Source of the DNA: Tubulanus polymorphus | Lineage: Eukaryota; Animalia; Nemertea | NCBI RefSeq assembly: GCF_964204645.1 | Contig: NW_027437441.1 | Span: 1-64,000, forward strand | Length of the DNA: 64,000 nt | Direction: 5' to 3' | Shown here: piece after piece, positions 27,873-64,000 of the stretch | Numbering within the stretch: the first letter of the stretch is position 1 | How the letters are laid out: each line of letters starts with the position of its first letter | Position numbers and translations under genes: made by a program | Notes under the pieces: model-generated | Told to the model about the DNA's origin: nothing | The model's input: the letters and a program-made list of their open reading frames with translations, nothing else | The model's database searches: none

Positions 27873-28201
27873 TTATTCAACAATTTCTAAATCATGATGG
27901 CCATCTTCATTTTTCCCGTGATAAATTATTCTATATCCTTCTAAATCTTTTAATTCGTCTGTATTTAATGTAATCCATTCATCGAGTAAAAATACTTTAT
28001 TAAAGTATCGTGTTGTACTAACATTACAATAACTCACATTTGCTGATATTTCTTCACCATATTTTGTTTTCATTTTTTTCTAATTTTAATATTTTATGTT
28101 CGATTTCTTGTGAAACATCGACTAATTTTTTATTTCATATTGTTTTTTGATGGTTCTATTCGGTTATTTATTGATACCAAGAATGCTTTCATGTCTTCCA
28201 T
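27873..28201 (-). pseudogene. Small Polinton protein, distant homologue of the gene downstream of polB in A and B
   Basis: TKYGE...IIYHGKNEDGHHDLEIVE versus NKYGD...FIYKGKNEKGHHDIDFE (43355-43590). Start in TAAATG context at 28201; disrupted 5' part. Confidence 0.7.
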
Positions 28202-28394
28202 TTATATAGAAAAAAATTAATGAGTGATGATGAGTGATTTATCGACCTCTCGATCACTGGTATGAAAACGCCATATTGTAATCACTTTCGTTCATAGTTC
28301 TACAGTACGGTAGTGCTTACAAAGTATCTCACATAAAGTTTACACCCACCAACTGCCGACCACTTAGCTGCGAGAGGTGCAGGATGCGCCACTG

Positions 28395-28530
28395 TTCTCC
28401 ACCACTTGTAATGGGACAGTTCTCCACCACTTGTAATGGTACTACAATCTCCACCAGTTGTTGTGGTACGAAGATCTTCACCAGTTGTTATGGGACTTAA
28501 CGATCTCTGTACCACTTGTTGTGTCACCTC
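28395..28530. repeat. Degenerate minisatellite, about five units of 25-29 bp
   Basis: Recurrent TCTCCACCACTTGTAATGG / TCTCCACCAGTTGTTGTGG / TCTTCACCAGTTGTTATGG cores. Confidence 0.75.
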
Positions 28531-29145
28531 GTTCTTCTCACTAATGCTGTCCCGCTGGATCTTCTATGAAACTGGTTCCTTTCGCTGACCTGCCTCTTCC
28601 TCATGTAAGTATTAACTACTAAACAAAGTGACAAAAAGCCATTCAGTCAAAATACTACCACACGTGACCCCCAGATGTAGCAAACCGCATTGTGAACAGT
28701 TTCTTTCCGTTTTCTTTGGATAATATTTTTCAGCTTCCCAGGATGAGGAACAGTGGCAGAGGGGCGAGCCAAGTGCAGTGTCAATTGGCCGTATCTACCT
28801 TTTGATGGTATAGATATTTTGGTTAGACACTACACTTAGGTGCGCCCCGAAAACGAACCACAAACCATTAGTGGAGATCGAAAGCTGCACATATCCTAAT
28901 CACTGAGATGCAACCCGAATGCGAAACGACTACTAGTGTTAGGTGTCGTGTTAGATGTCTGCTGTATCCAGAGCAGAGAAGTTTGGAGCTTAATATTGTA
29001 AAATAAGGACTATAATTGTTTAAATTTGTGTAGATATTTTGACTATACATTCCTGTTCAAATAGGAGTTTGAACAAGTTGAAGGGGGTGGTGTGATGGAA
29101 TATGTCCATCAGTCGTCTTCTATGTTGTAACTGGAGGGTGCTGCC

Positions 29146-29163
29146 CTCTCTCTCTCTCTCTCT
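29146..29163 (+). repeat. (CT)n microsatellite
   Basis: About nine CT units seen directly. Confidence 0.9.
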
Positions 29164-29607
29164 TGAAAAATACAGAACAATAGGTGATTGTGTTTATATC
29201 CTTTGTCCGCTGTTTTACTGGTTTTTGGGTTCTCGGAGTCGATATTTGGAGGAAACTTCTACTGTAGAATAGGACCTCGTTACAATCAGGTTTCACATTT
29301 AGTGAAGAATGACCCACAACTGGTGAAATATTTCTCCACTAGCCATTTTGTTAAGATTGCAAAAATCAATATTGCTTATTGTTGGAAAAATGATCTCATA
29401 CAACACAAACATCTAAAAATCAATAAGGGTGCATTAGATTTACTGCTAGAGTGTTACCTAGAGTGTCTCGAGACCTGACATGACAGGTTCTGGAAACTCG
29501 ACCTTTAGGGTCGAGCTACGTTTCCATACCTCAGAATACGGTGTCACTATGCCATCAAGGCGTGTCTACATCATCCATGTATATGACGTCACTGGCAGCA
29601 TATAAAG

Positions 29608-34395: not shown

Positions 34396-34470
34396 AAATA
34401 AACTCATGAAGATTGTCATAGTTGCGTTTTTATTATTATTTAACTATCTGGATACTCTTCCGAAATTATA

Positions 34471-35289
34471 CAGATTTAATTGACATGAAGAACTTAGAAG
34501 AACATAACAAAGGATATTTTCGGATATTGAATGTTATAGATATATTCAGTAGATACGCATGGTCAATTCCAATCAAAAATAAAACTGGTATAGAAGTAAC
34601 AAATGCGTTCAAGTTAATATTTAAAGAAGCTATCCCAGGTAAGATACAATTTGATGAAGGTTAGGAATTCTATACATGTAATAAACATTTTCAAAAACTA
34701 TTTTCTGATAACGATGTAGAGTATTTCTCAACACACTCAGACAAAAAAGCATCTATTATAGAAAGATTTAATAAAACATTGAAAACTAGAATGTGGAAAT
34801 ATTTTACTGCCAATGAAACATATAAATATATAGATGATTTAGTGAAAGGTTATGATAATTCTAAACATTCAAGTATTGGTATGAAACCTATACAAGCTAG
34901 AAAAGAAGATAATTCAGAAGTTGTTTGGGAACAATTTATACGGAGCATTTGTTACACATGATTTTGGAGAACCTAAATATCTAAATATCGAAAAACATTT
35001 TATAAAGGTTATACTCCAAATTTTACTGAAGAAATATTTAATATTAAAAAGATAATATTTACTAAACCTTTTGTATATAAATTAGTAGATTTAAAAGATG
35101 AAGAAATATTAGGTTATTTTTATGAACAAGAATTATCAATAATACCAAATCCAGATGAAACAGAATACAAAATAGAAAAAGTATTGAAAACAAAAACTCT
35201 TAAAGGAAAAAAGTATTCTTTGGTGAAATATAAACGGTATGATGATAAATTTAATGAATGGATTTTATCTAGTAAAATTAAAAGAGTAA
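34471..35289 (+). pseudogene. Retroviral-like (rve) integrase with C-terminal chromodomain-like region; N-terminus missing
   Basis: DLIDM...ILNVIDIFSRYAW..PIKNK...IQFDEG*EF...KASIIERFNKTLK..MWKYF...HSSIGMKP...YKIEKVLK...LVKYKRYDDKFNEWI; contains stops and frameshifts. Confidence 0.92.
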
Positions 35290-35901
35290 ATGAATAAAGA
35301 TTTATTTATACTTGAACCGCATAATATGTTAGTAACTGGAGTAACAAATTCTGGTAAAACACATTTCATATTAGATTTGTTAGAAACTATTTATAAGAAT
35401 CATTTTGATAATATAATATTATTCTGTCCTACTTATGAAATGAATAAAACGTATAATAGGGATATACTTAAGATAAAAAAGTTTATTATATTAGATCCTA
35501 AAACAGTAAAAGAAAATTTAGATAATTGTATTAAGATAGCAATCGATAGTTATAAAGGTTCAAATACATTATTCATCGTGGATGATTGTGCTAATTTACA
35601 TGATTCAAAAGTTAGAGAAAGTGAACTATGTTATTTAGCTTTCTCTGGGAGACATTTTGGGATAACAACATGGGTTTCAAATCAAAATTATAATTCAATT
35701 GTGAAAGATTTTACGGAGAATATAAGATTTTTAGTTTTATTTTTTAACAAAGATAGAAAATCAATGCAACAATCATTGGAAGAAATTCAAATAATACCTA
35801 CTGAATTACATGATGAATATATGAATAAATTAAAAAGTAATAAAGGTTCAAAATTATTACTGAGACTACAATTTCCTTATGATTATAAATTTATAAAATA
35901 A
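35290..35901 (+). CDS. A32/FtsK-like DNA packaging ATPase
   Basis: Walker A GVTNSGKT, Walker B LFIVDD, SGRH motif; open 203-aa frame. Confidence 0.92.
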   Translation: MNKDLFILEPHNMLVTGVTNSGKTHFILDLLETIYKNHFDNIILFCPTYEMNKTYNRDILKIKKFIILDPKTVKENLDNCIKIAIDSYKGSNTLFIVDDCANLHDSKVRESELCYLAFSGRHFGITTWVSNQNYNSIVKDFTENIRFLVLFFNKDRKSMQQSLEEIQIIPTELHDEYMNKLKSNKGSKLLLRLQFPYDYKFIK

Positions 35902-35904
35902 GGT

Positions 35905-36255
35905 ATTTTAAGCATTTATGTATTAGATACGTATTTGATACCTTAATACGTCTAAGTTGCGTATTAGATACGTATTAGATACGTATTAGATACTTTAATA
36001 CTTAAAACCCCCTTTTTTGAAATATATATTATTATTGATTTTAATTTTTCAACTAATATATGAATAAGTTTGAAAATAATAGAAGTTTAGAATAAATTAA
36101 TACATATTAGATACATAAATACTTAAATATGTATTAGATACATAATACGTATTACGTATTAAATACTTAATACGTATTAAATACGTATTAGATACCTAAA
36201 TACTTAAAACCCTTTTTATTAACTATTATTTTATACCAATTTCAACTAATATATC
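35905..36255. repeat. Two modules of quasi-palindromic 11-mers (GTATTAGATAC)n, each followed by AAAACCC-T-tract and TTCAACTAATATA, between convergent genes
   Basis: Repeats read directly; a third related module lies at 46870-47010. Confidence 0.8.
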
Positions 36256-37106
36256 ATGTGAGTTTGTAATAATTAACATCATTTTCATCACCATCCTCCA
36301 ATTCATCATCAGACTCTAACATTTTATTCAACCTATCTACCGGGTCATCATAAGTTTCTTCATTATAATCCTTTTTCATCCTATCTACCGCATCATCAAT
36401 AGTTACTACTTTCCGTTTCGTCCAATCTGTATCTATATAAGCTTCACTATCAATATGCTTTCCAGTAACTATATTTTCCTTATCCTCTTACTTAATGTTT
36501 GACCTTAATATTTTATTTACAATGTTTGATCCTAATATTTTATTAGCAGTTAAATCTAATTCATCTTTACTGAGTTCAGGTTCCTTAGATAAAAATTCGC
36601 CTAATAAATCTTTATATAAATCTTTGTCATTTACTTTTTTATTTGAAACAAACCTTGTTACATATCTAAATGGGTGTTCTATAAATTCTTTCAAACCAAC
36701 GCGTTTTATAACATTAGTAATATGTACAGCTGTATTCATATGGTTATTCCAATTTGATGGACTGTTTGAAAATTACAATAACCACAATAATTTCTATTTT
36801 CACTATAATTTAATATTATTCCATTATTATATGTAGAAGGTAAAAAATTATCAGATGTAGAAGGCAAAAACATTATCCGATGTAGAAGGTATAACATTAT
36901 CAGATGTAGAAGGTATAACATTATTATCAATTTCATTACTTAAAATATCAACAACACCACTTTTATTATTATCTATTTTACTTATTCTATATTTGAATTG
37001 ATTAAAGTATTCTCAAAAATACTTACTATTCATCATAAGGTATTATATGATATATATCTGATATCATTTCACTTGGACTTTGTATTTCATATATTCCTCC
37101 TTCCAT
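36250..37106 (-). pseudogene. Decayed Polinton hypothetical gene(s) downstream of MCP, containing a 24-bp x4 coding-like repeat at about 36828-36925
   Basis: TAAATG start at 37106; ORF fragment 36488-36739; acidic C-terminal remnant; TGTAGAAGG(T/C)...TTATCAGA repeats. Confidence 0.5.
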
Positions 37107-37138
37107 TTATTATAGAATCTTTTATTAAAATTAAAATT

Positions 37139-38271
37139 TTAATACATAACATTATTTAATTGAGAATTTATAATATTTAATTGCGCGTCAGATATAATAT
37201 AAATGTGCATTTTGTAATTAAAACCTGCTTTTTCTTTTTCATGAATATTTGTATCCCATCTTTAGTGTTCTGTAGTTTTTTCCCAGAACCATGTAATAAG
37301 TTATCTTCAGATCATTCAGATCATTCTCATTCCTTGACAGAATATTTTATTGGCTATACCTTCGATAGTTATTTCTACTTTTGATATTTCCGGATTATAA
37401 TAATTATCAACATTTATTGCACCATTAGAATATGTTGCAATGGTAAAAAGTATTAATACACCTTTAATAGATCTTCTTGGGTAGTTGATATTCTCATTAA
37501 TTATTTCATCATTTGCATTGATTCATAGTGACAATTTTAAATTTTTCAATATAATCATATAATAATGAAAATCCTTGATTATATTGAGTTTGAATTATGC
37601 TAGCAATATTTTCATCAGTTACTCTATCATATTCTAAACATATATTCGATAATTTATATTAACCAATATCTTTAACAACGCTTGATAATACAATTTTATT
37701 AACAGGAGCAAAATTTATTTCAAATATAATATCTTGTATAGCATATTCATATAAAGGCGCATTATCATTTATCAATTCAAAGTCTAATGGAATTTTATAT
37801 TTGCTTCCATAAACTTTTTTTAATCAAATTATCTGTAGCATTAGTTACTACTGCATTATTAGCTTCACATCTTAATTTATTGTGGTTTTCTGATTGGATG
37901 CCTTGAAATATCATATTATTTCTATTTTCTTTTGTTAACCATAAATCTTTGTAATGTGCGAATAAATTATAATCATCTAATGAGAAAACTGTTTCTGGAC
38001 CGATCTTTATAGTTAATTTTTTAATCAAATATCTCCCAACATAATCTACGGCATGATTATTATTATTACCAGTTACATCTATATCAGCTGATAAATAAAT
38101 ACTATTTGGAACATAAAAAGTATTTTGATTTAATCGAGGGATTCTAACATATAAAGTTTCATCAGGATTAATATTAGAAGGATTATGAGTAATTATATGA
38201 TGAGATCTCTCTGCTTTAATAGCATTAGATATTCTAGAATTCTTAGAAGGATTTATATAACTCCCACTCAT
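37139..38271 (-). pseudogene. Major capsid protein (double jelly-roll type), frameshifted and probably internally deleted
   Basis: N-terminal IITHNPSNI...LYVRIPRL...VPNSIYLS, NINYPRRSIKGVLILF, and C-terminal HGSGKKLQNTKDGIQI...IYIISDAQLNI resemble animal Polinton MCPs; size and context fit. Confidence 0.8.
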
Positions 38272-38292
38272 TTATTTAACCAAAAAAATTAC

Positions 38293-39689
38293 TTATTTAT
38301 TTTTTATCATATTAACTAACCCAAAAATAATTACACTTACAACTGTAATTAAAAATAAAATAATATGTTCAGCAAAGTTAATAATATTTCCAGCAGATTT
38401 TAAAACAAAACCCACAATTGATGCTATAACTCCGGGTATGGCTGCAGCATATTTTTTAGATAGTTCCCATAGATATTTTGCAAATTTTTTTAACCATCTT
38501 TAACTTTATCCTGTATAGAATTATTATGACTTGGAGGTTTATCCGGTTTATTGGGTGTAGGCGTAGATTTTAATGAATTTGATATTGCTAAACCAATTGT
38601 TGTAAATATCATAGTTACGGCTGTTAGAATTGATGGTATTGTGATACCTTCTTATTTAAATAATAACTTATAACTAATAACTCTATTAATATTATAATCA
38701 TATGATTTTAATAATAATTTCTTCTTTCTGAAATTCTATGTTATATTCTAAATCATCAATTTTTTTTTAAAATATGCATTTCTGTTTTTAAATTCAATTT
38801 CTTCAATAACTTTATTATCTCCATCTCATTTTAATTGTTCTATTTCTTTAAATTTATCATTTTTTTCTTTTTTTAATGTTCTTATTTTAAAATCTCTTTA
38901 ACTTTTTTCAAGGGCAAATTTATCAGCTTCATTTCTTGTACTAATAATTTCTCAAATTTCTTTATCAGAAAATATATTTAAATCTTCTAATTCTTGAGCC
39001 GTTGCATCAATTATTCCATTCGGTAAAAGTTTTTCAATTGGAACTTTATTTGATTTAAATTAACTAGTTTTAGAAGTTACATTCTGTTCAGAAGTTGTTT
39101 CTGTTTCTAAATTATCATTTATTATTTCAAATAATTCATTAATTCTTTGTTTAAATACTCTTTTATTTTGATTTATTTCTGTGTCGGTAACATTTTCTAT
39201 TTCATTACTATTACTTATTCTTTTAATTCTAGATGGTTCTAAATTACTCAAAGTCGATTCTGCTATTATTTTGTTTTGATTTTTATAAGTGATATTAATA
39301 AAATAATCATCTTTCAAATGATAATAATATTCACCATCTAAAAATTTTAATTCTCTTACTAAATATCTGGCACCTCTATCATTTATATTATATCCAAATC
39401 TTTCAAATATAGGTAGGAAATTATATATAAATTCATCATTTTCTAAATTTTGTTTTACAAAATCTGGATTTTCATTTTCAGCATTTATTCTCGATCTAGT
39501 TTTTTTATCAAACTCGTCTGTTGAAGGGGCTTTAGAACCACTATCTGCTAAATTAAAATTATATGCCGATCCATCATCATTATCAATATTAGTTTCATTA
39601 AAATCAGGTTGTGGTTCATCAGGTATAAATCCTTCATTATTATTTCCCATTTCTCCCATTTCATAAGCTTCTCCACCTTCTACATACAT
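38293..39689 (-). pseudogene. Polinton protein with acidic N-terminus, coiled-coil middle and multi-helix hydrophobic C-terminus (putative membrane-active protein)
   Basis: ORF 39060-39689 plus downstream fragments GITIPSILTAVTMIFTTIGLAI...AAAIPGVIASIVGFVLKSAGNIINF..HIILFLITVV; homologue starts at 63429. Confidence 0.65.
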
Positions 39690-39705
39690 TTATATCTTAT
39701 AAAAA

Positions 39706-41074
39706 TTAAAATCTAAAATATAATATTCCTCCTATTACAATTCCTATACAAGTTATAGCTAATTTAGTATTTTCATAGGATTAATTATCATTATTACTTT
39801 CAATTATATCATGTTGAATGATATCAGTTTTTATATTTTCTGTAGTATTGTAATCTTTTATTTTAGAATTATTATTTAATTTAATATTCTTAGTTTTAGT
39901 TTCAGTTGATTGAATATTGTTTTTAATTTTTTCACCTTCCATTAGTTCTGGAGCAGTGATAATCTTTTTATTAATATCATTTAATCCAAATGAATTATTT
40001 TTGTTGCGGTTTTAATCAAATCATTATAACCAATTATAATATTAAATCATCAGAAATAATTAATAAATTGGGCCCTATACAATAATTGAATCTTACATGT
40101 GATTTAGCTAAATAATTTTGGTACCTAACTATAGTTTCTGGAATCGATCTATTTTTATCATTATGAATTGAATCTTCAAATAATACTTTAAATTGTTTTT
40201 GTGTATCAAATGATGTATTTAAATTTCCAATTATTGGGGATCTTGTTTCAACCTGTGATCCTAGAATACATATCAAATAAGTTCTAATTGATTGATTTAT
40301 TCTTTGCATACCTGATTTAGTAAAACCTTCACTATTATCTAAGATAAAATAAACCCAACCATTATTGTTTTCTTGTTTTAAATGATCATAAAATTTCAGT
40401 AATTTATTATAATTTCATGTTTCTAAATCCATGTTTTCTATTTTACCATTACCTAATTTATCATTATAGATATTATAGAAACTATTAGATAGTATGGGAA
40501 GTGCACAATATTGTAAAATATTTTCAGGACAAGGAATTGATCTTATTGTTCCAATTTTTTTTCTAAAATCAGAATTATTTATATCTATATTAAATTCATT
40601 ACAAATTTTATAAAACTTTGATAAATTAATATTATTATCTTTAAAATATCTAGATCCTGGTAAATGGGTCTCTAATTCATTTAATATTAATCTTATTTGA
40701 AAGTATGTGTGGAATCTAAATAAACTTTGAATTAATTTATATTTAGGATTAATCAAATGATCATTCCAACCAATTCCACAACCTGTTGTTGCAAAATAAA
40801 CTGCAAAATTTAATTAGTTCAGCCAATACTTCATATTAGATTTTAATAACCATTGTTTTTCATCTTTCATTTTTTTTAAATTGATTAAATATACATGAAA
40901 TATATTTTCCATTTTTGTATTAAAATTATTAGTTTCAGTAACATAAATATCTAAATTAATTAATGAATCTAAAACTTCATTTCAATATGAAATATCTTTA
41001 TCAAAATCTGTTGCAGGAAAATTATATTCAATTGATTTATTTTATTGAAAAGCTTTTGGAAAACTAATTGCCAT
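39706..41074 (-). pseudogene. Conserved Polinton hypothetical protein with C-terminal hydrophobic tail
   Basis: LNFAVYFATTGCG, FRFHTYFQIRLIL, SEGFTKSGMQRINQSIRTYLICILGSQ; homologue at 62104-63405. Confidence 0.8.
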
Positions 41075-41090
41075 TTATATAATAAAAAAA

Positions 41091-41526
41091 TTAATAATCT
41101 ATTAATTCTTTTAATAATTTATCCTTCTCTTGAATTGTTATATTACCGTTTACACTTATTGTATAATCTAGTGTATTTTTTAATTTATTAATTTCTTTTA
41201 TATTAGATTTTATTTTTTCTTTATTACTTTTTATATTCAATTTTGAACTTTTTCCGGTTAAAACACTTGATGATAATCCTAGCGCACCAATTGTGATAGC
41301 TAAAGGTGTTAATGGTGAGAATATTGCTAAAAATGTTATCACCGAATTAATTGTAACTGAACCACTAATAATAACATAATATATAATTTTGCTTTTTAAA
41401 TATTTTTTCTTCTTAACTTTTAAATCATTTTTAAATTCTAATATTTGTTTTTTCCAAATATAATTTTAATTTAGTTTTATTTATATCATGAGGAATAATA
41501 TCAACATTATCAACTATATCATCCAT
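41091..41526 (-). pseudogene. Small Polinton protein with central hydrophobic segment and coiled coil
   Basis: ORF 41091-41342 plus frameshifted 5' part; homologue at 55669-62087. Confidence 0.7.
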
Positions 41527-41546
41527 TTATTTAGAAAAGAAAATTA

Positions 41547-41969
41547 CTAATTAGTAAATTTATATGCCACAAATATAACAATAACTGTTCCACCTAAAAT
41601 CCAATTATTTCATATTTCTTCTGTTCATTACTTGGGGTATATTAATCTGATATTGCAGGTTTATGTAGATGTAATTTTTCTTTATTTGTTACTGCGTTAT
41701 ATAAACTCATTGCATCATCGACTGATTGAAAATCTCTATGTGAAATTTTCTGATTATATAATTCTTTGTTAATATAATCCATATAGTTTTGTCTTTTTTC
41801 TCTATATTCTTCTGCAGCTTTATTATATTTCTTTAATGCGAAGTTATATCTTTTTTTGTTCTGATAATGAACCACTTTCATCAATATGTTTAAATGAATA
41901 TCCACCACCAGTAAATGCTAAAGCGTTAACAATTGCCGATCCTATAATATTAATAATTGCAGATGCCAA
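41547..41969 (-). pseudogene. Small conserved Polinton protein with hydrophobic ends (start codon mutated)
   Basis: ASAII..IGSAIVNALAFTGGGY...; intact homologue at 55228-55653. Confidence 0.75.
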
Positions 41970-41993
41970 TTATTTAACAAAAAAATTATGCAT

Positions 41994-42208
41994 TTATATA
42001 GGAGGGATACATTTTTGTTTATCTAAATAATCAATTGTTAAATTAGATAAAGTTACGTTAATTTTAAAATATCATTGATATCAAATCTATCAACATTAAC
42101 ACGTCCCATTTTAAATACTTTTTTTAATACCACTGAATAACCAACAGTTCCAACTGATAGTAAGGCACCATTATATAATCCAGTTATTATTCACTTATTA
42201 TCACTCAT
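41994..42208 (-). pseudogene. Small hydrophobic Polinton protein
   Basis: Homologue of 54982-55203, with a stop and a small deletion. Confidence 0.7.
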
Positions 42209-42211
42209 TTA

Positions 42212-42565
42212 TTAATTTAAAAAAATACTATCTTCAAAATATTTAGTTAACTTAGTTATAATTATTTCAATATTTATAATATTATTAGTTTCATTTTTAT
42301 ATATTTCAGTTATCATTTTTTTGATATCATCAATGATAAAATCTTCATCTAATTCATAAAATCTTAAAGACTCTCTAATTAAATCAGTAATCTTTTCTAC
42401 ATTAAAAGTTTCTTTATTTATTGTTGTTTCATAATCAAATGTTGTTTCATTAACAAATACAATATTTTTAATATGAGTTATTACATCATTAATGTTAAAT
42501 TTCATTTCTTTCTCACGTTTAAAACCAGATCCAAAACATATACTCGGTACTACTGTTATATTCAT
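42212..42565 (-). CDS. Polinton hypothetical protein (117 aa)
   Basis: Open frame conserved with 54638-54985. Confidence 0.75.
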   Translation of the reverse strand: MNITVVPSICFGSGFKREKEMKFNINDVITHIKNIVFVNETTFDYETTINKETFNVEKITDLIRESLRFYELDEDFIIDDIKKMITEIYKNETNNIINIEIIITKLTKYFEDSIFLN

Positions 42566-42582
42566 ATTTATATATCAAAAAA

Positions 42583-43334
42583 TTACTCTTTACATCTTAT
42601 AACTAATTCATAAATTACAGGAAATTATTTAAATCAATTAAGTGACCATTATGATTTCTCATTTCTACCTTAAAATTATTAAATTTTGGAATACAAGGTT
42701 TAAAATCACATTCAGCTAAATTATAATTTATTTGCGTTTCAAATTGTTTAACATTTTTTAATTGGTAAAATATTTAATATACTAGAATTACAAATTGTAT
42801 CTTTAGTTGCTTCGAATGTTTTTGTTGGGTCTATTAAATTACAATAAATATAAAAGTGTGTAAAAGAAATTATATTTGTATAATCAGTACTTGAATAATC
42901 TCTATCTGGAAGAATTCCAAACAGTTTAGCTAAAGGTTTTCTTACTAGGAATCTATGTTGTTCATTAGTTAACCTTATTCTTATTTTATTCGAACTATCA
43001 CTTTTAATAAATTTAATTTCAAATCGAGCAGCTGCGCCCATTTTTAAACGAGCTCTTTTATTAATTTCTTGCGCTAATGTTTCTAAATTATAAAAATCCT
43101 GGTTTTAGATAAAGATGACACCATTTATCAATTTTTCTAACATGAATTAAAAGCTAAATGATCAAGACTTTTATTCGATATATTATGAAAAGAATTACAT
43201 AAACTTTCATTTACTAATTTTAAATCAACACAATTCTTAAATTCTCTATCTAATTGTACTAGTAAATTATGTGATTTATAATTTGTAAGTCTTCTTGAAT
43301 CAACAAATATTCTATATTCTTTCAATTCTACCAT
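42583..43334 (-). pseudogene. Minor capsid (penton-like) protein, frameshifted
   Basis: IFVDS, NSFHNIS, PGFYNLETL, LAKLFG, FYIYCNLID, ILNILP and VEIRNHNGHLIDL motifs typical of Polinton/NCLDV pentons. Confidence 0.75.
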
Positions 43335-43354
43335 TTATTTTACATACTTTTATA

Positions 43355-48546: not shown

Positions 48547-48733
48547 TTTAATAACATATTTTTTATTAAGATTGATATTTTCTTCAACTCGTTAATTACT
48601 AGTTACTTTTATGTTAAAATCAAGAATTTAACACATATAAATATATTCACTGTTTTCTCGACGCAAGTTTTCACTTGTTAATTACTCGTTACTTTTTATG
48701 TTAAAATCAAGAATTCAACACATAAAAATTTAA

Positions 48734-49376: not shown

Positions 49377-49670
49377 CTTAAAATATTCATTTACATGGAT
49401 AAAATATATATGAATAACATATAAAAGTAATTAGAAAAGTGGGATTTCAAGCCAGAGGTCGGAGGTCGAGCCATTATAGAATAGATATATAGATATATTT
49501 TAAACATATTTCAATATTTATATTTGTATGAGTTAGATTTTTAAACATTAAAAGTGTCAGTAAAGTGTGATTGAAATAATTCATATATACACATGAATAA
49601 CATATAAATGAATAAAATATAAATTAATAAAATGTGTAAAATCAATTTAAAAAAAAAATTTAGTATTAAA

Positions 49671-52600
49671 ATGGAAACAAATAAGTATTACTGTTCAACA
49701 TGTAAAATCAATATAGATAAATCCCAAAAATCGAGACACAATAAAACTAAAACACATTTAGAGAATAAATTGAAATTAGAATATGAAGATGATATATTAG
49801 AATCTAAATTAGATGAATTAAAGAATGAAAAAGAAATATATAAATGTGATACATGTAATCAATCATTCAGTGATAAAAGATATTATAATGAACATTTAAA
49901 ATCTAAAAGTCATATTAGAAATATGAATAATGATATTTTAGGTGAAGATTATTTTGATAATGATAACGATAAGAAACATAAGACAATTAAAAGGATAAGA
50001 AATAAATTAAACAATAAAAGACCATACATGGAAGATGTAAGAAATTATATTAATTCATTAGATAATAAAAAAAAGATATAGAGATAACCGAAGCATTTAA
50101 GTGATATTGGTCCAGCTGCTATTGAGTTTAAATTTCATAAAGGAAAAACATTAGAAGAAAATAAAAAACATTTAGAAAATATGAAAAATATTATAAAAAT
50201 AATCACTGATGTTGAATACCCTAAAATTAGTATATCAGTTAAAGTAAAGTTTATAAAATCTGAAGATAAACCAATATATAATATAAATTCTCATTCACAA
50301 CATATTATATCTAAACAACATATAGATGATAAATTAGATAAATGTTATTATGAAGTAAAAACTAAAATAGAAGAGGAATATTTTGAAGGATCTGGTTTAA
50401 TATTTGATGAAATAATATTTATGACTTTACATGTGTATAACACAAAATATAATAAGTTAACTAAATCAAAACCAATAGATGAAAATAATGTATCATATTA
50501 TAAAGAACCAGATACTGAAGCATCGAGTTATATTAAACTACCATTTAAAACTAATGCTGTTATAAATGTACAAAATTTTGATGATAAATGTTTTCTATGG
50601 ACAATTATAAGTTGCTTACATCAAACAGAAGATATTACACATAGTTTTAGATTAACGAATTATAAACAATTTGAAAATAATTATAAGATAGATAAGTATC
50701 CAGTTAGAATTAAAAGTATCCCAAAAATAGAAAGAGATAATAATTTAAGAATAAATGTATTTGATTTAATCAAATTACCAAAAACAAAAGGCAACAATAT
50801 AAAATATTTTACATTAGAACCTTTATACCTATCAAAGATTATGATTCAAATGATGTTATAGATATATTATGTTATGAAAATCATTATATGTGGATTAAAC
50901 AAATCGATTTATACTTTAGAACAGAAAGTGATCATCATCGTAAAATTTATCTATGTAGAAAATGTTTACATAGATTCAGTAATGAAAGTACATTATTAAA
51001 TCATAAACAATTATGTGATAATCATGATTATTGTAAATTAGTTTTACCAAATGAAAAGGATAAAATATTAGAATTCAAAAAATATGATTACAAAAATAAA
51101 GTACCATTTGTTATATATGGAGATTTTGAATCATTAAATAAAGAATTAACTGATCAAGATAGAAAAGAAATATATTATAAAAGAAAGAAATTAAATTCTA
51201 ATGAAAATGATTTTTCAGATGAACCACCAAAAACAAATACAATTAAAAAGATTCATCAATCAGCTGCAGCTTTCGGGTTATATATAAAATCTGATTATCC
51301 AGAACTAATTGAAAGTGAATATTATCATTATAGAAATGAAAATGTTATCAATCATTTTTGTGACATATTAATTGAATATGAAATAAGATTTAGTAAACTA
51401 TTGAATACAAATATAGAAATTATAATGACAGAAGAAGATAAAGAAGAATTTGTGTTTACAGGTAAATGTTATTATTGTGAAAAGATATTAAATTATAAAG
51501 ATAAAAAAGTAAGAGACCATGATCATTTGAATGGAAAGTTTAGAGGCGCTGCGCATGAGAATTGTAATTTGCAAGCAAAGAAAATAAATTTTGTTCCAGT
51601 TATATTTCATAATCTATCAGGATATGATGCACATTTATTTATCAAACAGTTATGTCATAAAATAGAAGAAATCAATAGTGAAATAGAAAGATTAAATTTG
51701 AATAGATCAAAAGATAAAATAAATTTAAAATTTTAGCTAGAACATCTGAGAATTATATATCATTCCAATTTGGGTGTTTAAGATTTATAGATTCATATAG
51801 ATTTTTAAACAGTTCATTAGATAACTTATCAAAATCATTAGTTGATGATGAATTTAAAATATTAAAACAACACTATCCAAATAATGATGATTTCCAATTA
51901 ATGAGATATAAAGGAGCGATTCCATATTCTTTCTATAAATCACATAATGATTTCAATATAACTGAATTATTAAAAGAACAATTTTATGATGAATTAAAAA
52001 ATGAATAGATGAAGTCTATAATACAACATTGAATATTTGGAATCATTTTGGAATGAAAAATCATGGACAATTAGTAGATTTATATTTAAAATCAGATGTA
52101 TTATTATTATCGGATATATTTGAAAGGTTTAGAGATGTAAACCTAAAATATTTTAACATTGATCCTTGTCATTTTTATTCTAGTCCAGGTTTAACTTGGG
52201 ATTGTGGTTTAAAATTTACAGATATAAAAATGGATTTGTTAACAAATATAGATCAATTATTATTATTTGAAAAATCTATAAGAGGAGGAGTTTCAGGTGT
52301 CTTAGGTGATAGATATTTCAATGTAAATGATAATCCTGGATATAAGTTATTATATATAGATGCAAATAATCTATATGGTTGGGCAATGACGGAACCACAA
52401 CCTTATGGAGTATTTGAAATAAGTGAAGTTTTACAACATGAAAATAATGATAAATTCGATTGGAAGAAAAGAATCCTAGATATTGCAGATGATTCAGATA
52501 CTGGTTACTTCTTTGTTGTAGACTTGGAATATTCTGAACATATTAAATTTAAATCTAGAATACTGTCCCTGTCCAGAACGTAAAACTGTAACTCATGAAG

Positions 52601-53690
52601 AACTATCAAATTATCAAAAAAGAATTAAACCCGAAAATCATATTCATACAGAAAAGTTAATGTTGACTCAAGAAGATAAATATAATTATGTAGTACATTA
52701 TAGAATGTTGAAGTTTTATTTGAACCAAGGAATGGTTCTAAAAAAAGTACATAGATATATTTCATTTAGTCAATCTAAATGGTTAGAAAAATATATAGCT
52801 TTAACACCAAACAGAGAACTGAAGCTAAAACTGATTTCGAGAAAGATTTCTTCAAGTTAATGAATAATGCATTCTATGGTAAGACTTGTGAAAATATTAG
52901 AAATAGAAATGATATTGCGTTAGTTAGTAATGGTAAAAGGATAAGGCATTTACAAACATATCCCAAGTTCTTAGGTAACAGAATATTTGATGAAAATTTA
53001 GCTACAGTTAAAATGAGAAGAACTTCTATGAAATTTAATAAACCAATTTATGTTGGAGCATCAGTTTTAGAAATATCAAAATTACTAATGTATGAATTCT
53101 ATTATAATGTATTACAACCTCATTTTGGAGAAAAACATATAGAAATCTTATATATTGATACTGACAGTTACATTTTAAAGATTAAAACTAATAATCTAAC
53201 AAATGATTTAAAAACATTAAAACATCATTTCGACTTTAGTAATTATCCAAAAGATAATGAATTGTTTAGCAATGTTAATAAAAAGCAGCCCGGGAAGTTT
53301 AAGGATGAATTAGGCGGTGAAGAAATGATAGAGTTCATTGGTATTAGATCTAAAATGTATTCATATAAAACTAAAGAACATGAAGCTAAAAAGTTAAAAG
53401 GAATTACTAAAAGCGTAGTAGAAAAGAATATTCATTTCAAAGATTATATCAATTTTATATTCAATGAAGAAGTTAGAAAACATAAGATGAGATGTTCAAG
53501 ATCTGAAGATCATGAAATGTTTATTGAAGAAATTGAAAAGGTTAGTTTGAATCCATTTGACGATAAAAGATATATTTTAGATGATGAAATTCATACAGTC
53601 GCGTATGGTTGCAATTTAGATGATTATGTAAAGTTCAAAAGAGAAGAAACAAAAGAGAAGGAAATAATGAAAAGAATTCTAACGTGTTAA
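49671..53690 (+). pseudogene. polB: Full-length protein-primed PolB (N-terminal zinc fingers, OTU-like Cys/His region, endonuclease VII-like insertion, 3'-5' exonuclease, polymerase), multiply frameshifted
   Basis: SSYIKLP..VINVQNFDDKCF, NHYMWIK, VIYGDFES, CYYC...VRDHDHLNGKFRGAAHENCNL, FHNLSGYD, YLKSDVLLL, YIDANNLYG, KLMNNAFYGK, YIDTDS across ORFs 49632-53690. Confidence 0.96.
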
Positions 53691-53719
53691 TTCAGTTTTA
53701 ATAAAAATATATATTATAA

Positions 53720-54073
53720 ATGGAGAGTAAACAAGCAAACAGTGAGTACAACAAATTATTTCTAGATAGAATAAAAAATACTTCAAATGTCAGATCAGTA
53801 GATTATAAATTTAAGAAGTTAAGAGAAATCAGAATCCATAAGAAATAACTAATTACAAATATTGATACAGTTACTAACAAATATGGAGATAAATTAGTTA
53901 TACACTTAGAATATGAAGGATTAAAAGGAAATACATTTAAATTCAGAACATATTTACCAGATAGATTTCATAGATTATCAAGTGAAGATTTAGAAGAATT
54001 ATGTTCAGGCGATTTCTATTTCGTATACAAAGGTAAGAATGAAAAAGGCCACCATCAAATAGATTTCGAATAA
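53720..54073 (+). pseudogene. Small Polinton protein (one in-frame stop)
   Basis: MESKQANS...KFKKLREI..HKK*LITNIDTVTNKYGD...YLPDRF...GHHQIDFE; homologues in A and C. Confidence 0.75.
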
Positions 54074-54087
54074 AATATGTGAAATAA

Positions 54088-54621
54088 ATGGTAGAATTAA
54101 AAGAATATAGAATACATGTTGATTCTAGAAAACTTACAAATTATAAATCTCATAATTTACTAGTACAATTTAAATTTTTAATTAGATTTATAAAAAGTGA
54201 TAGCACAAATAAAATTAAAATAAAGTTACATGATGAAAGTCAACATTCATTTATGGTGAGAAAACCATTAGCTAAACTGCTAGGAATTGCATCAGATATT
54301 GTTACAGGAAACGTAGATGGTAATTCAAATATAATGCCTTTTTCACACTTTTATATTTATTGCAATTTAATTGATGCTACAAAAAATTTCGAAGCAACTA
54401 AAGATATATCTTGTAATTCTAGTATATTAAATATTATACCATTACAAAATGTTAAAAAATTTGGAACACAAATTAATTATAATTTAGCTGAATGTGATTT
54501 TAAACCTTGTATTTCACGATTTAACAATTTTAAATTAGAAATAAGAAATCATAATGGTTATTTAATTAATTTGAATAACTTTCCTATAATTTATGAATTA
54601 ATTATAAGATGTAAAGAGTAA
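54088..54621 (+). pseudogene. Minor capsid (penton-like) protein with an internal deletion that leaves the frame open
   Basis: Matches 42583-43334 but lacks the segment from LDREF through the PGFYN region. Confidence 0.75.
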
Positions 54622-54640
54622 TTTTTTCACTATATAAATG
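54622..54640 (+). promoter_or_regulatory. Representative poxvirus-late-like promoter: T6-N7-TAAATG
   Basis: TTTTTT CACTATA TAAATG; the same architecture precedes most Polinton starts (see findings). Confidence 0.6.
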
Positions 54641-54985
54641 AATATAACTGTTGGATCAAGTATATGTTTTGGATTTGATTTTAAACATGAGAAAGAAATG
54701 AAATTTAACATTAATGATGTAATAACACATATTAAAAATATTTCATTTTCTAATGAAACAACATTTGACTATGAAAAAACAATAGATAAAGAAACTTTTA
54801 ATGTAGAAAAGATTACCGAGTCTTTAAGATTTTATGAATTAGATGAAGATTTTATAATTGATGATATCAAAAGAATAATAACTGAAATATATGAAAATGA
54901 ACCTAATAATACTATAAATGTTGAATTAATCATAAATAAGATAACTAAATATTTTGAAAATAGTAATTTTTCTATAAATAAATGA
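54638..54985 (+). CDS. Polinton hypothetical protein (115 aa)
   Basis: Open frame; homologue 42212-42565. Confidence 0.75.
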   Translation: MNITVGSSICFGFDFKHEKEMKFNINDVITHIKNISFSNETTFDYEKTIDKETFNVEKITESLRFYELDEDFIIDDIKRIITEIYENEPNNTINVELIINKITKYFENSNFSINK

Positions 54986-55203
54986 GTGATAATAAGTGGA
55001 TAATAACTGTTTTTTATAATGGAGCATTATTATCGGTTGGAACTGTTGGTTATACAATGGTATTAAAAAAAGTATTTAAAATGGGAAGTGTTAATGTTGA
55101 TAGATTTGATATTAATGATATTTTAAAATTAACGTTAGCAGTTACTTTATCTAATTTAACTTTTGATTATTTGGAAAAACAAAAATATATTCCTCCCATA
55201 TAA
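54982..55203 (+). CDS. Small hydrophobic Polinton protein (73 aa)
   Basis: Open frame, TAAATG start, homologue in A. Confidence 0.75.
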   Translation: MSDNKWIITVFYNGALLSVGTVGYTMVLKKVFKMGSVNVDRFDINDILKLTLAVTLSNLTFDYLEKQKYIPPI

Positions 55204-55211
55204 ATGCATAA

Positions 55212-55230
55212 TTTTTTTTCTAAATAAATG
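55212..55230 (+). promoter_or_regulatory. Representative poxvirus-late-like promoter: T8-N5-TAAATG
   Basis: TTTTTTTT CTAAA TAAATG; the T-run also contains a T5NT motif directly after the upstream stop. Confidence 0.6.
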
Positions 55231-55653
55231 GCTTCTGCAATTATAACTTTTTTAGGATCAGCAATTGTTAACGCTTTAGCATTTACTGGTGGTGGTTATT
55301 TATTTAAACACATTGATAAAAATGGTTCATTAACAGAACAAAAAAGACATAACTTAGCATTAGAAAAATATAATAAAGCTGCAGAAGAATACAGAAAAAA
55401 AAGACAAAACTATATGGATTATATTAACAAGGAATTATATAATCAGAAGATTTCACATAGAGATTTTCAATCAGTTGATGATGCAATGAGTTTATATAAC
55501 GCGGTAACAATGAAAGAAAAATTACATCTACATAAACCTACAACATCAGATTATTATACCCCAAGTAATGAACAGAAGAAATATGAAATAATTTGGATTT
55601 TAGGGGGAACAGTTATTGTTATATTTGTTGCTTATAAATTTACTAATTCGTAA
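55228..55653 (+). CDS. Small conserved Polinton protein (141 aa) with hydrophobic N- and C-termini
   Basis: MASAIITFLGSAIVNALAFTGGGYLF...YYTPSNEQKKYEIIWILGG; homologue in A. Confidence 0.8.
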   Translation: MASAIITFLGSAIVNALAFTGGGYLFKHIDKNGSLTEQKRHNLALEKYNKAAEEYRKKRQNYMDYINKELYNQKISHRDFQSVDDAMSLYNAVTMKEKLHLHKPTTSDYYTPSNEQKKYEIIWILGGTVIVIFVAYKFTNS

Positions 55654-58207
55654 TTTTTTGCTAAATAAATGGATGATAAAGTTGATGGTCTTAATATTAT
55701 TCCTCATGATATCAGTAAACCTAAATTAAGAATATATTTAGAAAAACAAATATTAGAATTTGAAAGTGACTTAAAGATAAAAAAGAAAAAAAATTTTAAA
55801 AAGTAAAATTATATATTATTTGATTATAAGTGGTTCGGTTACAATTAGTTCTGTAATAACATTTCTAGCAATATTCAGCCCATTAACACCTTTAGCTATA
55901 TCAATTGGTGTGTTAGGATTAAGTTCAAGTGTATTAACTGGCATAAGTTCAAAATTAAATATAGCTGCAAAGCAGCGATAACGGGTTTTCTGAGCAGGCG
56001 TGCTATTCATAATTTGAAAAGTGGATAAAAGAAATATATCAATACGGGATACGCATTTGATGTGTCAAGTCACACCAATGCGGTTTAACATAACATAATT
56101 TATAGTTATAGTCAAATTGGGGGTTACTCGGGTCGTTTAGTTGTCTGTGGAGTCGAGTAGATTGGTTACCCGTCTGTAACATTGGTTAGGGAAACGACTC
56201 GTCAGCTTGATGAGTTGTATGTATTATGATTGTGCACCACCTGCATTTTCCGAAATAATGTTCATATAATTATTTGAAGGGACAATTGAAATCAATTATC
56301 AACGTACATCTGAATATGTAATAGTCCTTAGTAACTTTCTGTTGCAGAGGGCATAGAAAGGATTTTGAAATTATTTAATTAAAATATAAATTTTATTTAC
56401 GAAAAATAAACTATTATGGTCAGTACAAATTGAATATTCATAGTGTATTTTTAAGAACAAGCTTACATAGCTTACAGAATACATCACGTACATTTGAATT
56501 TTATAACTGATGGGTAAAAAATCAACGTGTGACAGAAAAAAATGTAGTTAATTATTTAACAATATCGAAATATGTGCTCTCTTTTTAAACTAATGGAGTG
56601 ATACGCAATTAATCACATGGCCTGTATTAAAAGATAGAACATACAAATTGGATATTTATAAGTCGAAACATGTGAACAGAAACTAAAAATTTGATGTCAG
56701 TGACCAGTAGTATGGAATTACACAACGACAATTGGCTTTAAACTCAACAAACATTATTAAAGAATGTTTCAAACAAAATGCTTTATATAACGACATGAAT
56801 AAACTTGTTTTACAAAACAAGAAAGTACATTTTGAACTTTTGAATGGTCGAATCCCATTTATTCACAGTAACCTGTGATGTGGCGATCCTCGGAGCCATC
56901 ATTCTTGATGACGTCACTAACAAGTGGTCACGGCCGTCGCGTGCACTCATTTCTTTGAAAATCTAGCTTCCTCGCGGAGCGGGACCTGGTGACGCTGAGC
57001 CCCACCCCCTTCGCGCTGAGAAATATCTTATTCCCAGTCAGCAAAGACAGGTTCTAAAGATCATAGAGTGCATCGCTGGAGGGTTTCCGATCCAATTTGA
57101 ATTGGTGCGGTGGCGCTCTCAATGCGGAAGTTTTTGTGAATTTTTCAGTCGGCGACGGACGTTTATCGTTGTAAGTGATGTAATATGTAAAAAATGCAGG
57201 GAAACCTATCTCAATTTATTTTTAGCGATGCAGCGGAACTAATAAGGAACATTTTGATATATAACATGACTATAGTACACTATCCCTGATGGAATAATAA
57301 GCTCCACTCGACAAACTCGTTCCCGTGCATTTTTATCTCTGTTTCAGCACACCATAGTTAGTTACCTAATCGTTGGTGGTAAGCTTTTTATAATCGGATG
57401 GGCTTATACCAACGTTAGGGATGACAAGGACCAAAACACGTTAAAAAAAGTAACACTTCAAAAGTATACTTTCTATTCACTTCAGTCCACAATTAATGGC
57501 TTAATTCACAAACTAACACAGGTACCTTTCGAAATAATCCAATTTCATGTATGTTTCGAGTGGTTAATCAACATTATTTTGAGAAATTAATTAATTTCTC
57601 CACCAATTTCGCCATTGGCCGCCATTTCTCTGTATTGCACATGTGGCATGATAGGACAAGGGGACCTACAAGGATTTATATAAAACTTCCAAGACGAAAC
57701 GACAATTTTTATTTTTGATGGTTTTCCAACTTATATTTCAAATCTTCGTGTTTTCCATAATAAATAATGAAATAATAAATTCTGGTAAAAGAAAAATGTG
57801 AATAAGTGTTGATTTCTTAATTTTTTTCAATTTCGTCGTTTCGCTTCGTTAGTTTGTGCTGTTGTCCTGGCCTCAGTCCACAGGTGCCAGCACCTCCAGT
57901 AATTTTCAAAATGGCAGCTGTTGACCCGACGGAAATTGACTCTCACTTTACGGCCGATTTGCACATGGATTAAGATCATCAGGTGAGGTGTTATAGGTAT
58001 CAGACAAACTACGAATCTGTTGTGCGTCGATTACAACAAAAAATAGACGGATATCTTAAGAGACAATGAAATGCCAGGCAAATTACTCGTCAGTCAAATT
58101 GGCTGACGAAGATTTCATACAAAAATGACCTTCCCATTCTTGACTGTGGTTTGTGAAAATATCCGATTGTGAAACTAAACCACAGACAGGTTACTGACTA
58201 AGCACAC

Positions 58208-61559: not shown

Positions 61560-61630
61560 GTTTCACTAGGATTCGAACCCTCGACCTCTCATTTGGGAGT
61601 CAAACACCTTATCCACCATGCCACAGGACA
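61560..61630 (-). pseudogene. tRNA-derived sequence within the HINE
   Basis: Minus strand TGGCATGGTGGATAAGG (A box) ... CTCCCAA loop ... GGTTCGAATCC (B box) at tRNA-like spacing; stems degenerate. Confidence 0.55.
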
Positions 61631-62103
61631 GGACGCTGTTTTAATCGTTAGTGGGAGTACCCCACAGGGCGAGTCGCGATTGCTACTATCATCCGGTGTT
61701 ATCTTTCAGTAAGTAATTTTAAGTTTAAAATAGGACGGAGAATGCATAGGTATAATCTACGCGGAGCGAATGCGTGTTATATTACTATCAGAATTCTACA
61801 TTTCAATTAGAAGCAGTTAGGTGTCGAATCTGATAGAAGATGAATTTTATGTGCGAAAAAAAAGTGGAAAATATGTAAATAATAATAATAACAATCAACA
61901 GAATTACAAAAGGGTTTTCGACGAAAGTCAGAAAACCCTAAATATAAAAAGTAATAAAGAAAAATTTAAAACTAATATAAAAGAAATTAATAAATTGAAG
62001 AATACACTAGATTATATAATAAGTTTAAATGGTAATATTACAGTTGAAGAACAAGATAAATTATTAAAAGAATTAATAAATTATTAATTCTTTTATTATA
62101 TAA

Positions 62104-63405
62104 ATGGGGTTTCCAAAAGCTTTCCAATATAATAAATCAATTAAATATAATATTCCTGCAATAGATTTTAACAAAAATATTACATATAAAAATTTAGTTT
62201 TAAATTCATTAACTAATTTAGAAATTTATGTTACTGAATCACAGTTTTTTATTTCTAAAATGGAAAATATATTTAATACATATGAAGTTACTTTTACTCG
62301 AGATGAATATCATATATATAAAGTAAAATCTAATATGAAATATTGGCAGAATCAATTAAATTTTGCTGTTTATTGTGCAACAACTGGTTGTGGTATAAGT
62401 TGGAATGATCATTTGAATAACTTAGATAAAAATTTGAAAATTCTGATTTAAAATTAATTCACACAATATTTAGATTTCACACATATTTTCAAATCAGAAT
62501 AATATTAAATGAATTAGAATGTCCTTTACCCGGATCTAAGTATTTTAAAGAATTGGATGATAATATTAATCTATCTAAGTTTTATAAAATATGTAATGAA
62601 TTTAATATAAATATTAATTCTGATTTTAGAGCGCATGGTAAATTGCAAGGTATTGGTGAAGAGTATGAAATAAAAAGAAGTGATTATATGCATAGAATTT
62701 CAGCTTATCATACTTATAAAATTGATAATAATAATGGTTGGATTGATTTCATTTTAGAAAATAGTGAAGGTCTTACAAAATCAGGCATACAAAGAATAAA
62801 TCAATCTATTAGAACTTATTTAATTTGTATTTTAGGTGCACAAGTTGAAACAAGATCACCAATAGTTGGAAATGATAGTACTTCATTTGATGCGCAGAAA
62901 CAATTCAAAGTATTATTTGAAGATTCCATTCATAATGATAAAAATAGATCTATTCCAGAAAACATTGTAAGATATCAAAATTATTTAGATAAATCACATA
63001 TTAGATTAAATTATTGTATAGGCCCTAATCTATTAATTATTTCTAATGATTTAGTATTAAAGATGGGAAATATAATTGGTTATAATAATCTAATTAAAAC
63101 TGCAACAATAAATAATTCATTTGGATTAAATGATATAAATAAAAAGATTATTGCTGCTTCAAAAATTAATGGAAGGTGAAAAAAATAAAAAACATATTCA
63201 ATCAACAGAAACTAAAACTATGAATATTAAATTGGATAATGATTCTAAAATAAAAGATTACAATACATCAGAAAATATTAAAACTGATAATATTCAACAT
63301 GAAATAATTAAACTAAATGATGATAATAAATCCCATGAAAATGCTAAATTAGCTTTAACTTGTATTTTAGTTAGGAATTGTAATCGGAGGAATATTATAT
63401 TTTAA
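62104..63405 (+). pseudogene. Conserved Polinton hypothetical protein (frameshifted)
   Basis: YWQNQLNFAVYCATTGCGISW, FRFHTYFQIR, SEGLTKSGIQRINQSIRTY; homologue 39706-41074. Confidence 0.82.
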
Positions 63406-63428
63406 ATTTTAATTTTTTTATTATGTAA

Positions 63429-64000
63429 ATGGATGTAGAAGGTGGAGACGCTTATGAAATGGGAGAAATGGGAATTAATAATGAAGGATATATTGATGAT
63501 GATTATAATGATGCAGAAACTAATATTGATAATGATGATGAATCAGCGTATAATTCTAATTCAGCAGATAGTGCTTCTAAAGGCCCATCAACAGATGAAT
63601 TTGATAGAAGAACTAGATCGAGAATAAATCCTGAAAATCAGAATCCAGATTTAGTAAGACAGAATTTAGAATATAATGAATATGTTTATAATTTCAAACC
63701 TACATTTGAAAAATCTGGATATAATATAAATGCCAGAGGCGCCAGACTTTTAGTAAGAGAATTAAACATTTAGATAGTGAATATTATTATCATTTGAAAG
63801 ATGATTATTATATTAATATCTCTTATAAAAATCAAAGCAAAATATTAGCAGAATAAACTTTGAGTAATTTAGAACCAGAATTAAAAGAATAAGTAATGGT
63901 AATGAAATAGAAAATGTAAAACAAGAAAAAATAAATCAAAATAGAAAAGTATTTAAACAAAGAATTAATAATTTATTTGAAACAATCGATAATAAACAGA
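63429..64000 (+). pseudogene. 5' part of the acidic/coiled-coil putative membrane-active Polinton protein
   Basis: MDVEGGDAYEMGEMG... homologous to the gene starting at 39689. Confidence 0.75.

Follow-up and report, generated by a model that had tools for sequence, protein, structure and literature searches.

Poxviruses start their late genes at a TAAATG initiator with a conserved T 10 nucleotides (nt) upstream, and their intermediate genes at TAAA, often lacking the TG, with A-rich sequence upstream (PMC11980589). TAAATG is also carried by a fish poxvirus (PMC4542343), and vaccinia polymerase slips on the initiator, adding a 5' poly(A) leader (PMC6211774). The promoters of mavirus and other virophages copy the late promoter of the helper (10.1101/068312), and the same logic holds for a transpoviron and a pacmanvirus (PMC11788076). 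The question of how Polintons integrated in animal genomes are transcribed, and of whether they can act autonomously, arises for a stretch of 64,000 nucleotides of DNA (the window) that holds four Polinton pieces, all decayed (C, A, D and B, in order of position). Because the genes of this family start at a conserved two-part signal that matches poxvirus post-replicative promoters, the family is probably transcribed by the RNA polymerase and the intermediate and late factors of a co-infecting pox-type virus.

Like the present family, mavirus is a Polinton-like integrating virus with a protein-primed family B DNA polymerase (pPolB), an rve integrase and a double-jelly-roll capsid; the family differs from mavirus and its helper CroV in motif, in helper family and in having probably an animal host (judged from the element class and the flanking repeats), and helper-induced expression and host protection have been shown for mavirus (10.1101/068312), whereas the family is known here from sequence. 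The entomopoxvirus-associated polinton-like viruses (Barth et al. 2024, PMC11296320) are likewise Polinton-like and tied to poxviruses, and one of their lineages branches beside group-2 Maverick-Polintons; by description they are set apart, as they come from occlusion bodies and encode a cysteine protease, with no rve integrase reported in the extract. The words 'promoter', 'TAAAT' and 'motif' are absent from the main text of that article (supplements not covered). Maverick-Polintons and adintoviruses (PMC8502044; 10.64898/2026.06.19.733378) share pPolB, rve-chromo integrase, A32 ATPase and double-jelly-roll capsid with the window family, in which, unlike in them, a Pfam scan of proteins from incomplete elements detected no cysteine protease. 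The word 'promoter' is used in the main text of neither PMC8502044 nor PMC11131425, nor in that of two preprints from 2026, one of them 10.64898/2026.06.19.733378. The yeast pGKL elements (PMC6211774) are linear, have pPolB and a pox-like TAAAN initiator, and produce 5' poly(A) leaders from it; they also encode an RNA polymerase, and the box that they use upstream, ATNTGA, is related to early promoters of poxviruses; no such polymerase or box was seen here. A TAAATG motif in Polintons was not found described in the full-text literature (main texts only, few subscription papers). While poxvirus-associated polinton-like viruses are thus already known (PMC11296320, by extract), a pox-type promoter code in Polintons is apparently new.

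Start sites in the window were anchored by tblastn of intact relatives where these matched; the starts in D, the polB starts and a few others carry coordinates from a preliminary description of this DNA, all of which proved correct. TAAATG was found at 19 of the 24 mapped Polinton starts, while the remaining ATGs of these AT-rich elements had it in 6.6% of cases (61 of 929); the pooled value (p=1e-18) does not rest on independent starts, because A and B are orthologous, and copy B alone had TAAATG at 8 of 9 starts (p=3e-9). This agreed with the preliminary description, which had placed TAAATG at nearly all starts and named the same five exceptions (42565, 47336, 49671, 48546 and 41969, the last having lost its start codon to mutation). 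A T-run upstream, which it had given for most genes, was present at 13 of the 19 TAAATG starts (T4-T8, ending 5-8 bp before TAAAT); the six others (35290, 37106, 43334, 53720, 54088 and 48216) and both polB starts (49671 and 48546, reading TAAAATG) had an A-run in place of it, the existence of two classes having been overlooked. The distance of 15-25 bp to the upstream stop did not apply to every start, since start 54982 overlaps the upstream stop (ATGA) and start 42208 is 3 bp past a stop. The promoters in copy A and in the left part of copy B were:

35270..35292, + strand: A-run TAAATG promoter of the packaging ATPase gene (open reading frame (ORF) 35290-35901, Pox_A32)
37104..37126, - strand: A-run TAAATG promoter, start 37106
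38269..38291, - strand: T-run TAAATG promoter of the major capsid gene, start 38271
39687..39709, - strand: T-run TAAATG promoter, start 39689
41072..41094, - strand: T-run TAAATG promoter, start 41074
41524..41546, - strand: T-run TAAATG promoter, start 41526
41967..41989, - strand: T-run promoter of the gene with the broken start codon (41969)
42206..42228, - strand: T-run TAAATG promoter, start 42208
42563..42585, - strand: T-run promoter with variant initiator TAAATATG, start 42565
43332..43354, - strand: A-run TAAATG promoter of the putative minor capsid gene, start 43334
49651..49673, + strand: A-run TAAAATG promoter of polB (intermediate-like)
53700..53722, + strand: A-run TAAATG promoter, start 53720
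54068..54090, + strand: A-run TAAATG promoter of the putative minor capsid gene, start 54088
54618..54640, + strand: T-run TAAATG promoter, start 54638
54962..54984, + strand: T-run TAAATG promoter, start 54982, overlapping the upstream stop
55208..55230, + strand: T-run TAAATG promoter, start 55228
55649..55671, + strand: T-run TAAATG promoter, start 55669, of a gene split by a 6-kb insertion

Relatives were found with an ATPase alignment of 71 proteins, and the best 80 of 162 metagenome stretches were used (72 after removal of 8 near-duplicates), with 16 of 25 blast clusters as core genes; nine clusters were left out as antisense-like frames or unrecognisable. The codon before the ATG of 264 core-gene starts was TAA in 168 cases, TAG in 2 and TGA in 1. 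The distribution over loci was bimodal: among 63 loci with at least two genes, 29 had TAAATG at all starts, 21 at none and 13 were in between, several of these mixed loci looking decayed, and decayed relatives lose the motif. Classification gave 37 TAAATG-class and 22 non-class loci; in the former, 157 of 166 starts read TAAATG (a figure that is partly due to the definition of the class, which does not apply to the tests given below), and the background in relatives was 169 of 4,476 ATGs (3.8%), or 110 of 1,957 (5.6%) by a stricter rule. The motif was conserved down to approximately 42% ATPase identity and from 20 to 45% G+C while spacer sequence and G+C drifted; a varying spacer and constant architecture had already been noted in the window.

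Several trivial origins of the signal were ruled out in these loci. Relatives at 36-45% G+C kept TAAATG (53 of 54 starts) and relatives without it occurred at 20-31% G+C, which rules out an artefact of AT-rich composition. An in-frame stop acting as a guard was likewise rejected, as TAG and TGA made up 35% of the true stops in the 37 loci (TAA 90, TGA 27, TAG 22) and only 1 of 166 codons before the ATG (TAA 157, TAG 1, TGA 0). Stop-start coupling, already doubted in the preliminary description, could be dismissed because 59 of the 157 TAAATG starts were head-to-head with the neighbouring gene, the 5' ends overlapping in 38 cases, and the stop of an upstream gene was used at only 17 starts. Kozak context would account neither for these head-to-head starts nor for the fixed upstream element described below, and the T at -3 is the reverse of the A at -3 found in 74% of 46 starts in the sister clade of the ATPase tree, which has ordinary A-rich starts and wider gene gaps. 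Head-to-head gaps were as small as 4-6 bp in three loci (L016, L017 and L019). In many of the loci L031-L063 (for example, L035:8098-8125) the ATPase gene and the gene head-to-head with it share 13-43 bp, the commonest overlap being exactly 22 bp, and each of the two genes contains the promoter of the other.

Alignment of the relatives on the ATG resolved an upstream element, with T at 59/88/69/75% at -15..-12 and G+C near zero there, and the order A at -17/-16, T-rich -15..-12, free spacer, TAAATG, purine. The conserved T at -14/-13/-12 (88/69/75%) is the 11th to 9th nt upstream of TAAAT. WTWT at -15..-12 was present at 92 of 157 starts versus 13.7+-3.4 in 2000 shuffles (maximum 26), and at 13 of 169 internal TAAATG controls. 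T at -14 was frequent (50-100%) in all but one of 11 gene families with at least four members; without the two largest families the count was 93 of 103; in loci with at least 36% G+C, the G+C content was 7% at -15..-13 versus 39% at -11..-6. Given this fixed element and the 59 head-to-head starts, stop-start coupling and Kozak context do not explain the signal. Where T at -14 was missing (19 of 157 promoters), A was found at -16/-15/-14 in 89/84/95%. Of the 24 window promoters 8 fit this A-run, intermediate-like form, as do 19 of the 157 promoters of relatives, its non-circular test being weak, and the window exceptions, polB included, seem to form a second, A-run class resembling pox intermediate promoters.

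For comparison, 36-38 viral_contigs records were fetched with a pox-type polymerase motif; from their size and gene starts we take them to be poxviruses. The set covered approximately 25 orthologue groups near one gene, with insect poxviruses and asfarviruses not knowingly in the sample. TAAATG stood at 337 of 728 starts (approximately 45%), T peaked at -13/-12 with G+C near zero at -15 and -13, and the correlation of the T profile with that of the Polintons was highest at shift 0 (r 0.72-0.74); for the purine at +4 the two sets compared as 95% versus 91%. The pox orthologue groups split into T-run and A-run kinds (one group being mostly TAAAATG), in agreement with PMC11980589 and PMC5294985 on late and intermediate promoters. 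The Polinton signal is thus like that of poxviruses (PMC11980589, PMC5294985) in having TAAAT fused to the ATG and followed by a purine, a G/C-free T-rich element approximately 10 nt upstream, and an A-rich class in which TAAA does not always precede TG. It is unlike it in lying on a small integrating element without a polymerase, in reaching approximately 95% coverage of the genes of its class (157 of 166) where poxviruses have approximately 45%, in having the main T one base further upstream, and in that no early class was seen.

Among other giant viruses, 46 of 609 starts were TAAATG (first 80 of at least 120 loci). One group among them, presumably iridovirus-like to judge from its short RPB1 polymerase subunit and followed up in 79 loci, had TAAATG at 195 of 864 starts and showed no positional upstream element: WTWT was flat over -22..-13, the T-profile correlation did not exceed 0.35 over all loci of the group (in the close clade it was 0.44, reached at shift 3), and +4 was a purine in 69%. 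TAAATG by itself is therefore not pox-specific, and in this sample it is the two-part geometry that is. In the aquatic loci with a short largest polymerase subunit (L279-L357; for example, L316, L317 and L319), up to 80% of nearby starts read (A)ATAAATG, a form not described in the extracted iridovirus section of PMC5294985. Taken at the level of sequence, the pox-late-promoter interpretation is well supported because of the geometry in fixed register, its conservation, its independence of upstream genes and its absence from most of the other giant viruses sampled. The preliminary description had offered the same interpretation, which stands for bipartite geometry, register and conservation; the helper dependence that it added is something we infer.

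Under transcription by a pox-type virus, polymerase would start on the AAA of the initiator, slip and add a 5' poly(A) leader. T at -3 is a poor context for ribosome scanning; the leader would replace it and give a start that ribosomes can read without an encoded 5' untranslated region (UTR), which would explain both the invariant T at -3 and the gaps of 4-6 bp between head-to-head genes. The A-run genes would be transcribed first, in the manner of intermediate genes, and T-run genes, including the capsid gene, later. Among the genes examined none starts in another way, be it early or host-type, and the element would therefore stay silent in the absence of its helper, like mavirus without CroV, and integration by the rve integrase would leave many germline copies. 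No match to RNA polymerase, TBP or TFIIB families was found among the 23+30+18+35 proteins scanned (from incomplete elements), so that a helper is the simplest source of these functions, as for mavirus; the intact relative L006 had, apart from polB, no ORF longer than 486 aa. The sister clade, with A at -3 and wider gaps, looks as expected for host transcription.

Two other sources of polymerase were weighed against a pox-type virus. The helper might be another giant virus, iridovirus-like or of an unsampled lineage, that also starts its genes at TAAATG, and the short-RPB1 loci lend this some weight, since individual loci reach 8 of 10 or 15 of 25 TAAATG starts, often as AATAAATG, as in the window. 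L006 also has a deoxynucleoside kinase gene with a promoter of the family, and the short-RPB1 locus L198 a distant kinase (27% identity). The lack of positional WTWT, the weak T-profile correlation and the low purine frequency at +4 in that group speak against it, and we consider such a helper unlikely. Host RNA polymerase II, alone or with a factor of the element, could instead act in the nucleus, the likeness to poxviruses being due to TBP-type recognition or convergence. The high copy number in the host would suit this, as would the several conserved element genes without assigned function, and a title in the reference list of PMC5294985 has vaccinia intermediate and late elements targeted by TBP. 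Against it, T at -3 is opposite to the scanning context of the sister clade, an upstream 5' UTR has no room between head-to-head genes that overlap or are separated by 4-6 bp, TBP and TFIIB were without a match among the scanned proteins, and no excess of AATAAA was found behind stops (24 of 133 vs 27.7). Polyadenylation signals were enriched in neither class and therefore did not separate the two, and the strand bias of TTTTTNT was equal in TAAATG and non-TAAATG classes. Transcription by the host enzyme thus seems improbable.

A feature of translation or genome compaction (stop-start coupling, an in-frame stop guard, or AATAAA fused to the next ATG, aided by AT-rich DNA) could draw on the 17 of 157 starts that use the upstream gene's stop, on the many tandem gaps of 0-5 bp and on AAATAAATG being the commonest form. 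It is largely refuted, and hardly credible any longer, as 59 of the 157 starts are not preceded by a gene of their own strand, TAG and TGA are all but missing before the ATG, the fixed upstream element is left unexplained, and the signal is kept at 36-45% G+C and missing in AT-rich relatives (20-31% G+C). It is also very improbable that the signal is a relic of past helper dependence, now unused. The window copies are decayed, with three T-run promoters damaged or variant, and decayed relatives lose the motif, but intact relatives keep it down to approximately 42% ATPase identity while spacer and G+C drift, which needs ongoing selection, and L006, L010 and L037 point to intact copies with a full promoter set.

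Several observations weigh against transcription by a pox-type virus, which we nevertheless prefer. No helper was found: the 38 viral_contigs records with the pox motif all look like poxvirus genomes of known size, none tied to the host, searches for environmental or insect pox-like helpers gave only the same kind of full-length pox records, and 239 pox ORFs had no tblastn match in the window or the 80 loci. The family is very abundant in one run of host DNA (10,227 contigs; a second contig run gave one 171-nt contig), and strict helper dependence is difficult to reconcile with this copy number unless infection was frequent. There is no clear route for a cytoplasmic polymerase to a nuclear copy, nuclear entry of the late factor being only proposed for mavirus, and initiation site and poly(A) leader are predictions. 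The strongest upstream T is at -14 in Polintons and at -13 in the pox set, the short-RPB1 group has TAAATG as well, and the A-run class comprises 19 promoters (8 of 19 vs 26 of 138 in the non-circular test, p=0.034). Several conserved genes have no assigned function, and the elements examined are incomplete. An inducible antiviral defence is speculative and unsupported, because no RNA, helper or pox gene was found, the copy number is high and no nuclear route is clear.

The wider proposition, to which we give even chances, is that a large, old clade of integrating Polintons may be obligate parasites of pox-type viruses, with a poxvirus promoter code in two stages, intermediate and late, that marks undiscovered poxviruses in hosts without a known one, and that the start signal may name the helper family. 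If true, one big Polinton clade is helper-dependent and the virophage strategy extends from protists to germline elements of (probably) animals; pox-type viruses so far unknown are predicted in these hosts, and a cheap sequence rule for assigning helpers is at hand. Sister lineages have other start signals, a TATA-type among them.

In the ATPase tree (66 rows, 56 labelled) the TAAATG label changed at least four times and kin shared labels, no shuffled control accompanying this count. L053, nested in a non-TAAATG clade, had TAAATG at both of its two genes, a possible independent switch based on few genes. The neighbouring branches L021-L023, L025-L027, L030 and L040 lacked TAAATG and had a TATA-like tetramer within approximately 10 nt of the ATG, even at 49% G+C (L027); these starts resemble the late signal of asfarviruses and pacmanvirus and may go with a different helper. 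No close ATPase relative was found in viral_contigs (0 and 5 distant loci). The kinase gene of L006, an intact relative (L006:10343-10981; PF01712, 2e-31), has a T-run TAAATG promoter and fits replication where nucleotides are scarce.

Positions 1-27580 of the window are an array of a 118-bp satellite with more than 200 copies, the last approximately 2 kb of which is inverted and adjoins fragment C. Downstream, the Polinton pieces (22-26% G+C) lie amid reverse transcriptase (RT) retroelements and further host sequence. Copies A and B, oriented in opposite directions, share 80-88% identity; RT retroelements cut off both ends of A, and the 6-kb insertion splits B inside the gene starting at 55669. 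Their contents were:

27600..28221, - strand: fragment C, with part of the major capsid gene and a small gene that starts at 28201 with a T-run TAAATG promoter (28199-28221)
34470..45713, both strands: copy A, decayed; + strand, rve integrase and A32 ATPase; - strand, polB, small genes, the putative minor capsid gene, two conserved genes of 400-480 aa, the double-jelly-roll major capsid gene and one further gene
35920..36203: two long hairpins, AT-rich, where the ATPase gene and the next one converge (z -4.9, -4.7), candidate signals for 3' ends
46870..48732, - strand: fragment D, with a polB N-terminal zinc-finger piece (48546, A-run TAAAATG), genes starting at 48216 (A-run TAAATG), 47590 (T-run TAAATG) and 47336 (T-run, variant initiator), and a hairpin near 46876-46940
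49638..55978, + strand: left part of copy B, decayed, with polB, which has a zinc finger and an endonuclease VII domain, followed by six genes
61938..64000, + strand: right part of copy B, with T-run TAAATG promoters 62084-62106 and 63409-63431

That these pieces are Polinton rests on pPolB, the rve-chromo integrase, the A32 ATPase and the double-jelly-roll capsid of the intact orthologue. PF03175 matched the window polymerase fragment weakly (1e-5) and the relatives L035 and L085 strongly; the L006 integrase, 59-75% identical to window positions 34470-35288, had rve and chromo above cut-off; and the window ATPase matched PF04665 (Pox_A32, 1.5e-10). The L006 capsid (approximately 71% identical to the window pieces) gave an alignment-based model of pLDDT 85 (single-sequence fold, 34) that matched iridovirus, PBCV-1, Sputnik and mavirus capsids (E 1e-16 to 5e-11); a PDB sequence search with the capsid had no match. 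These fold matches do not favour Sputnik or mavirus, and the family is not placed in Virophaviricetes. No minor capsid protein had a Pfam match among the proteins scanned, and this label for the genes at 43334 and 54088 is a guess. Self-comparison of the window, in which copies are truncated or run off the end, gave no clean terminal inverted repeat pair, and an ARAGORN scan gave no tRNA.

Hairpins behind the ATPase gene or between converging genes were also seen at window positions 46876-46940 and at L007:3030-3110, L010:3555-3650 and L009:787-1032, with z of -3 to -10 and a sequence that differs between elements; they are candidate terminators or 3' processing sites. As a marker of the helper they were rejected, since they occur in the close clade and also, weaker, in the sister clade. 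In fragment D, a 41-bp block with an A-run promoter is doubled before two successive genes (48228-48268 and 48559-48597, 90% identical), and within the 6-kb insertion of copy B, 49 bp (58226-58274) are identical to positions 41545-41593 of copy A.

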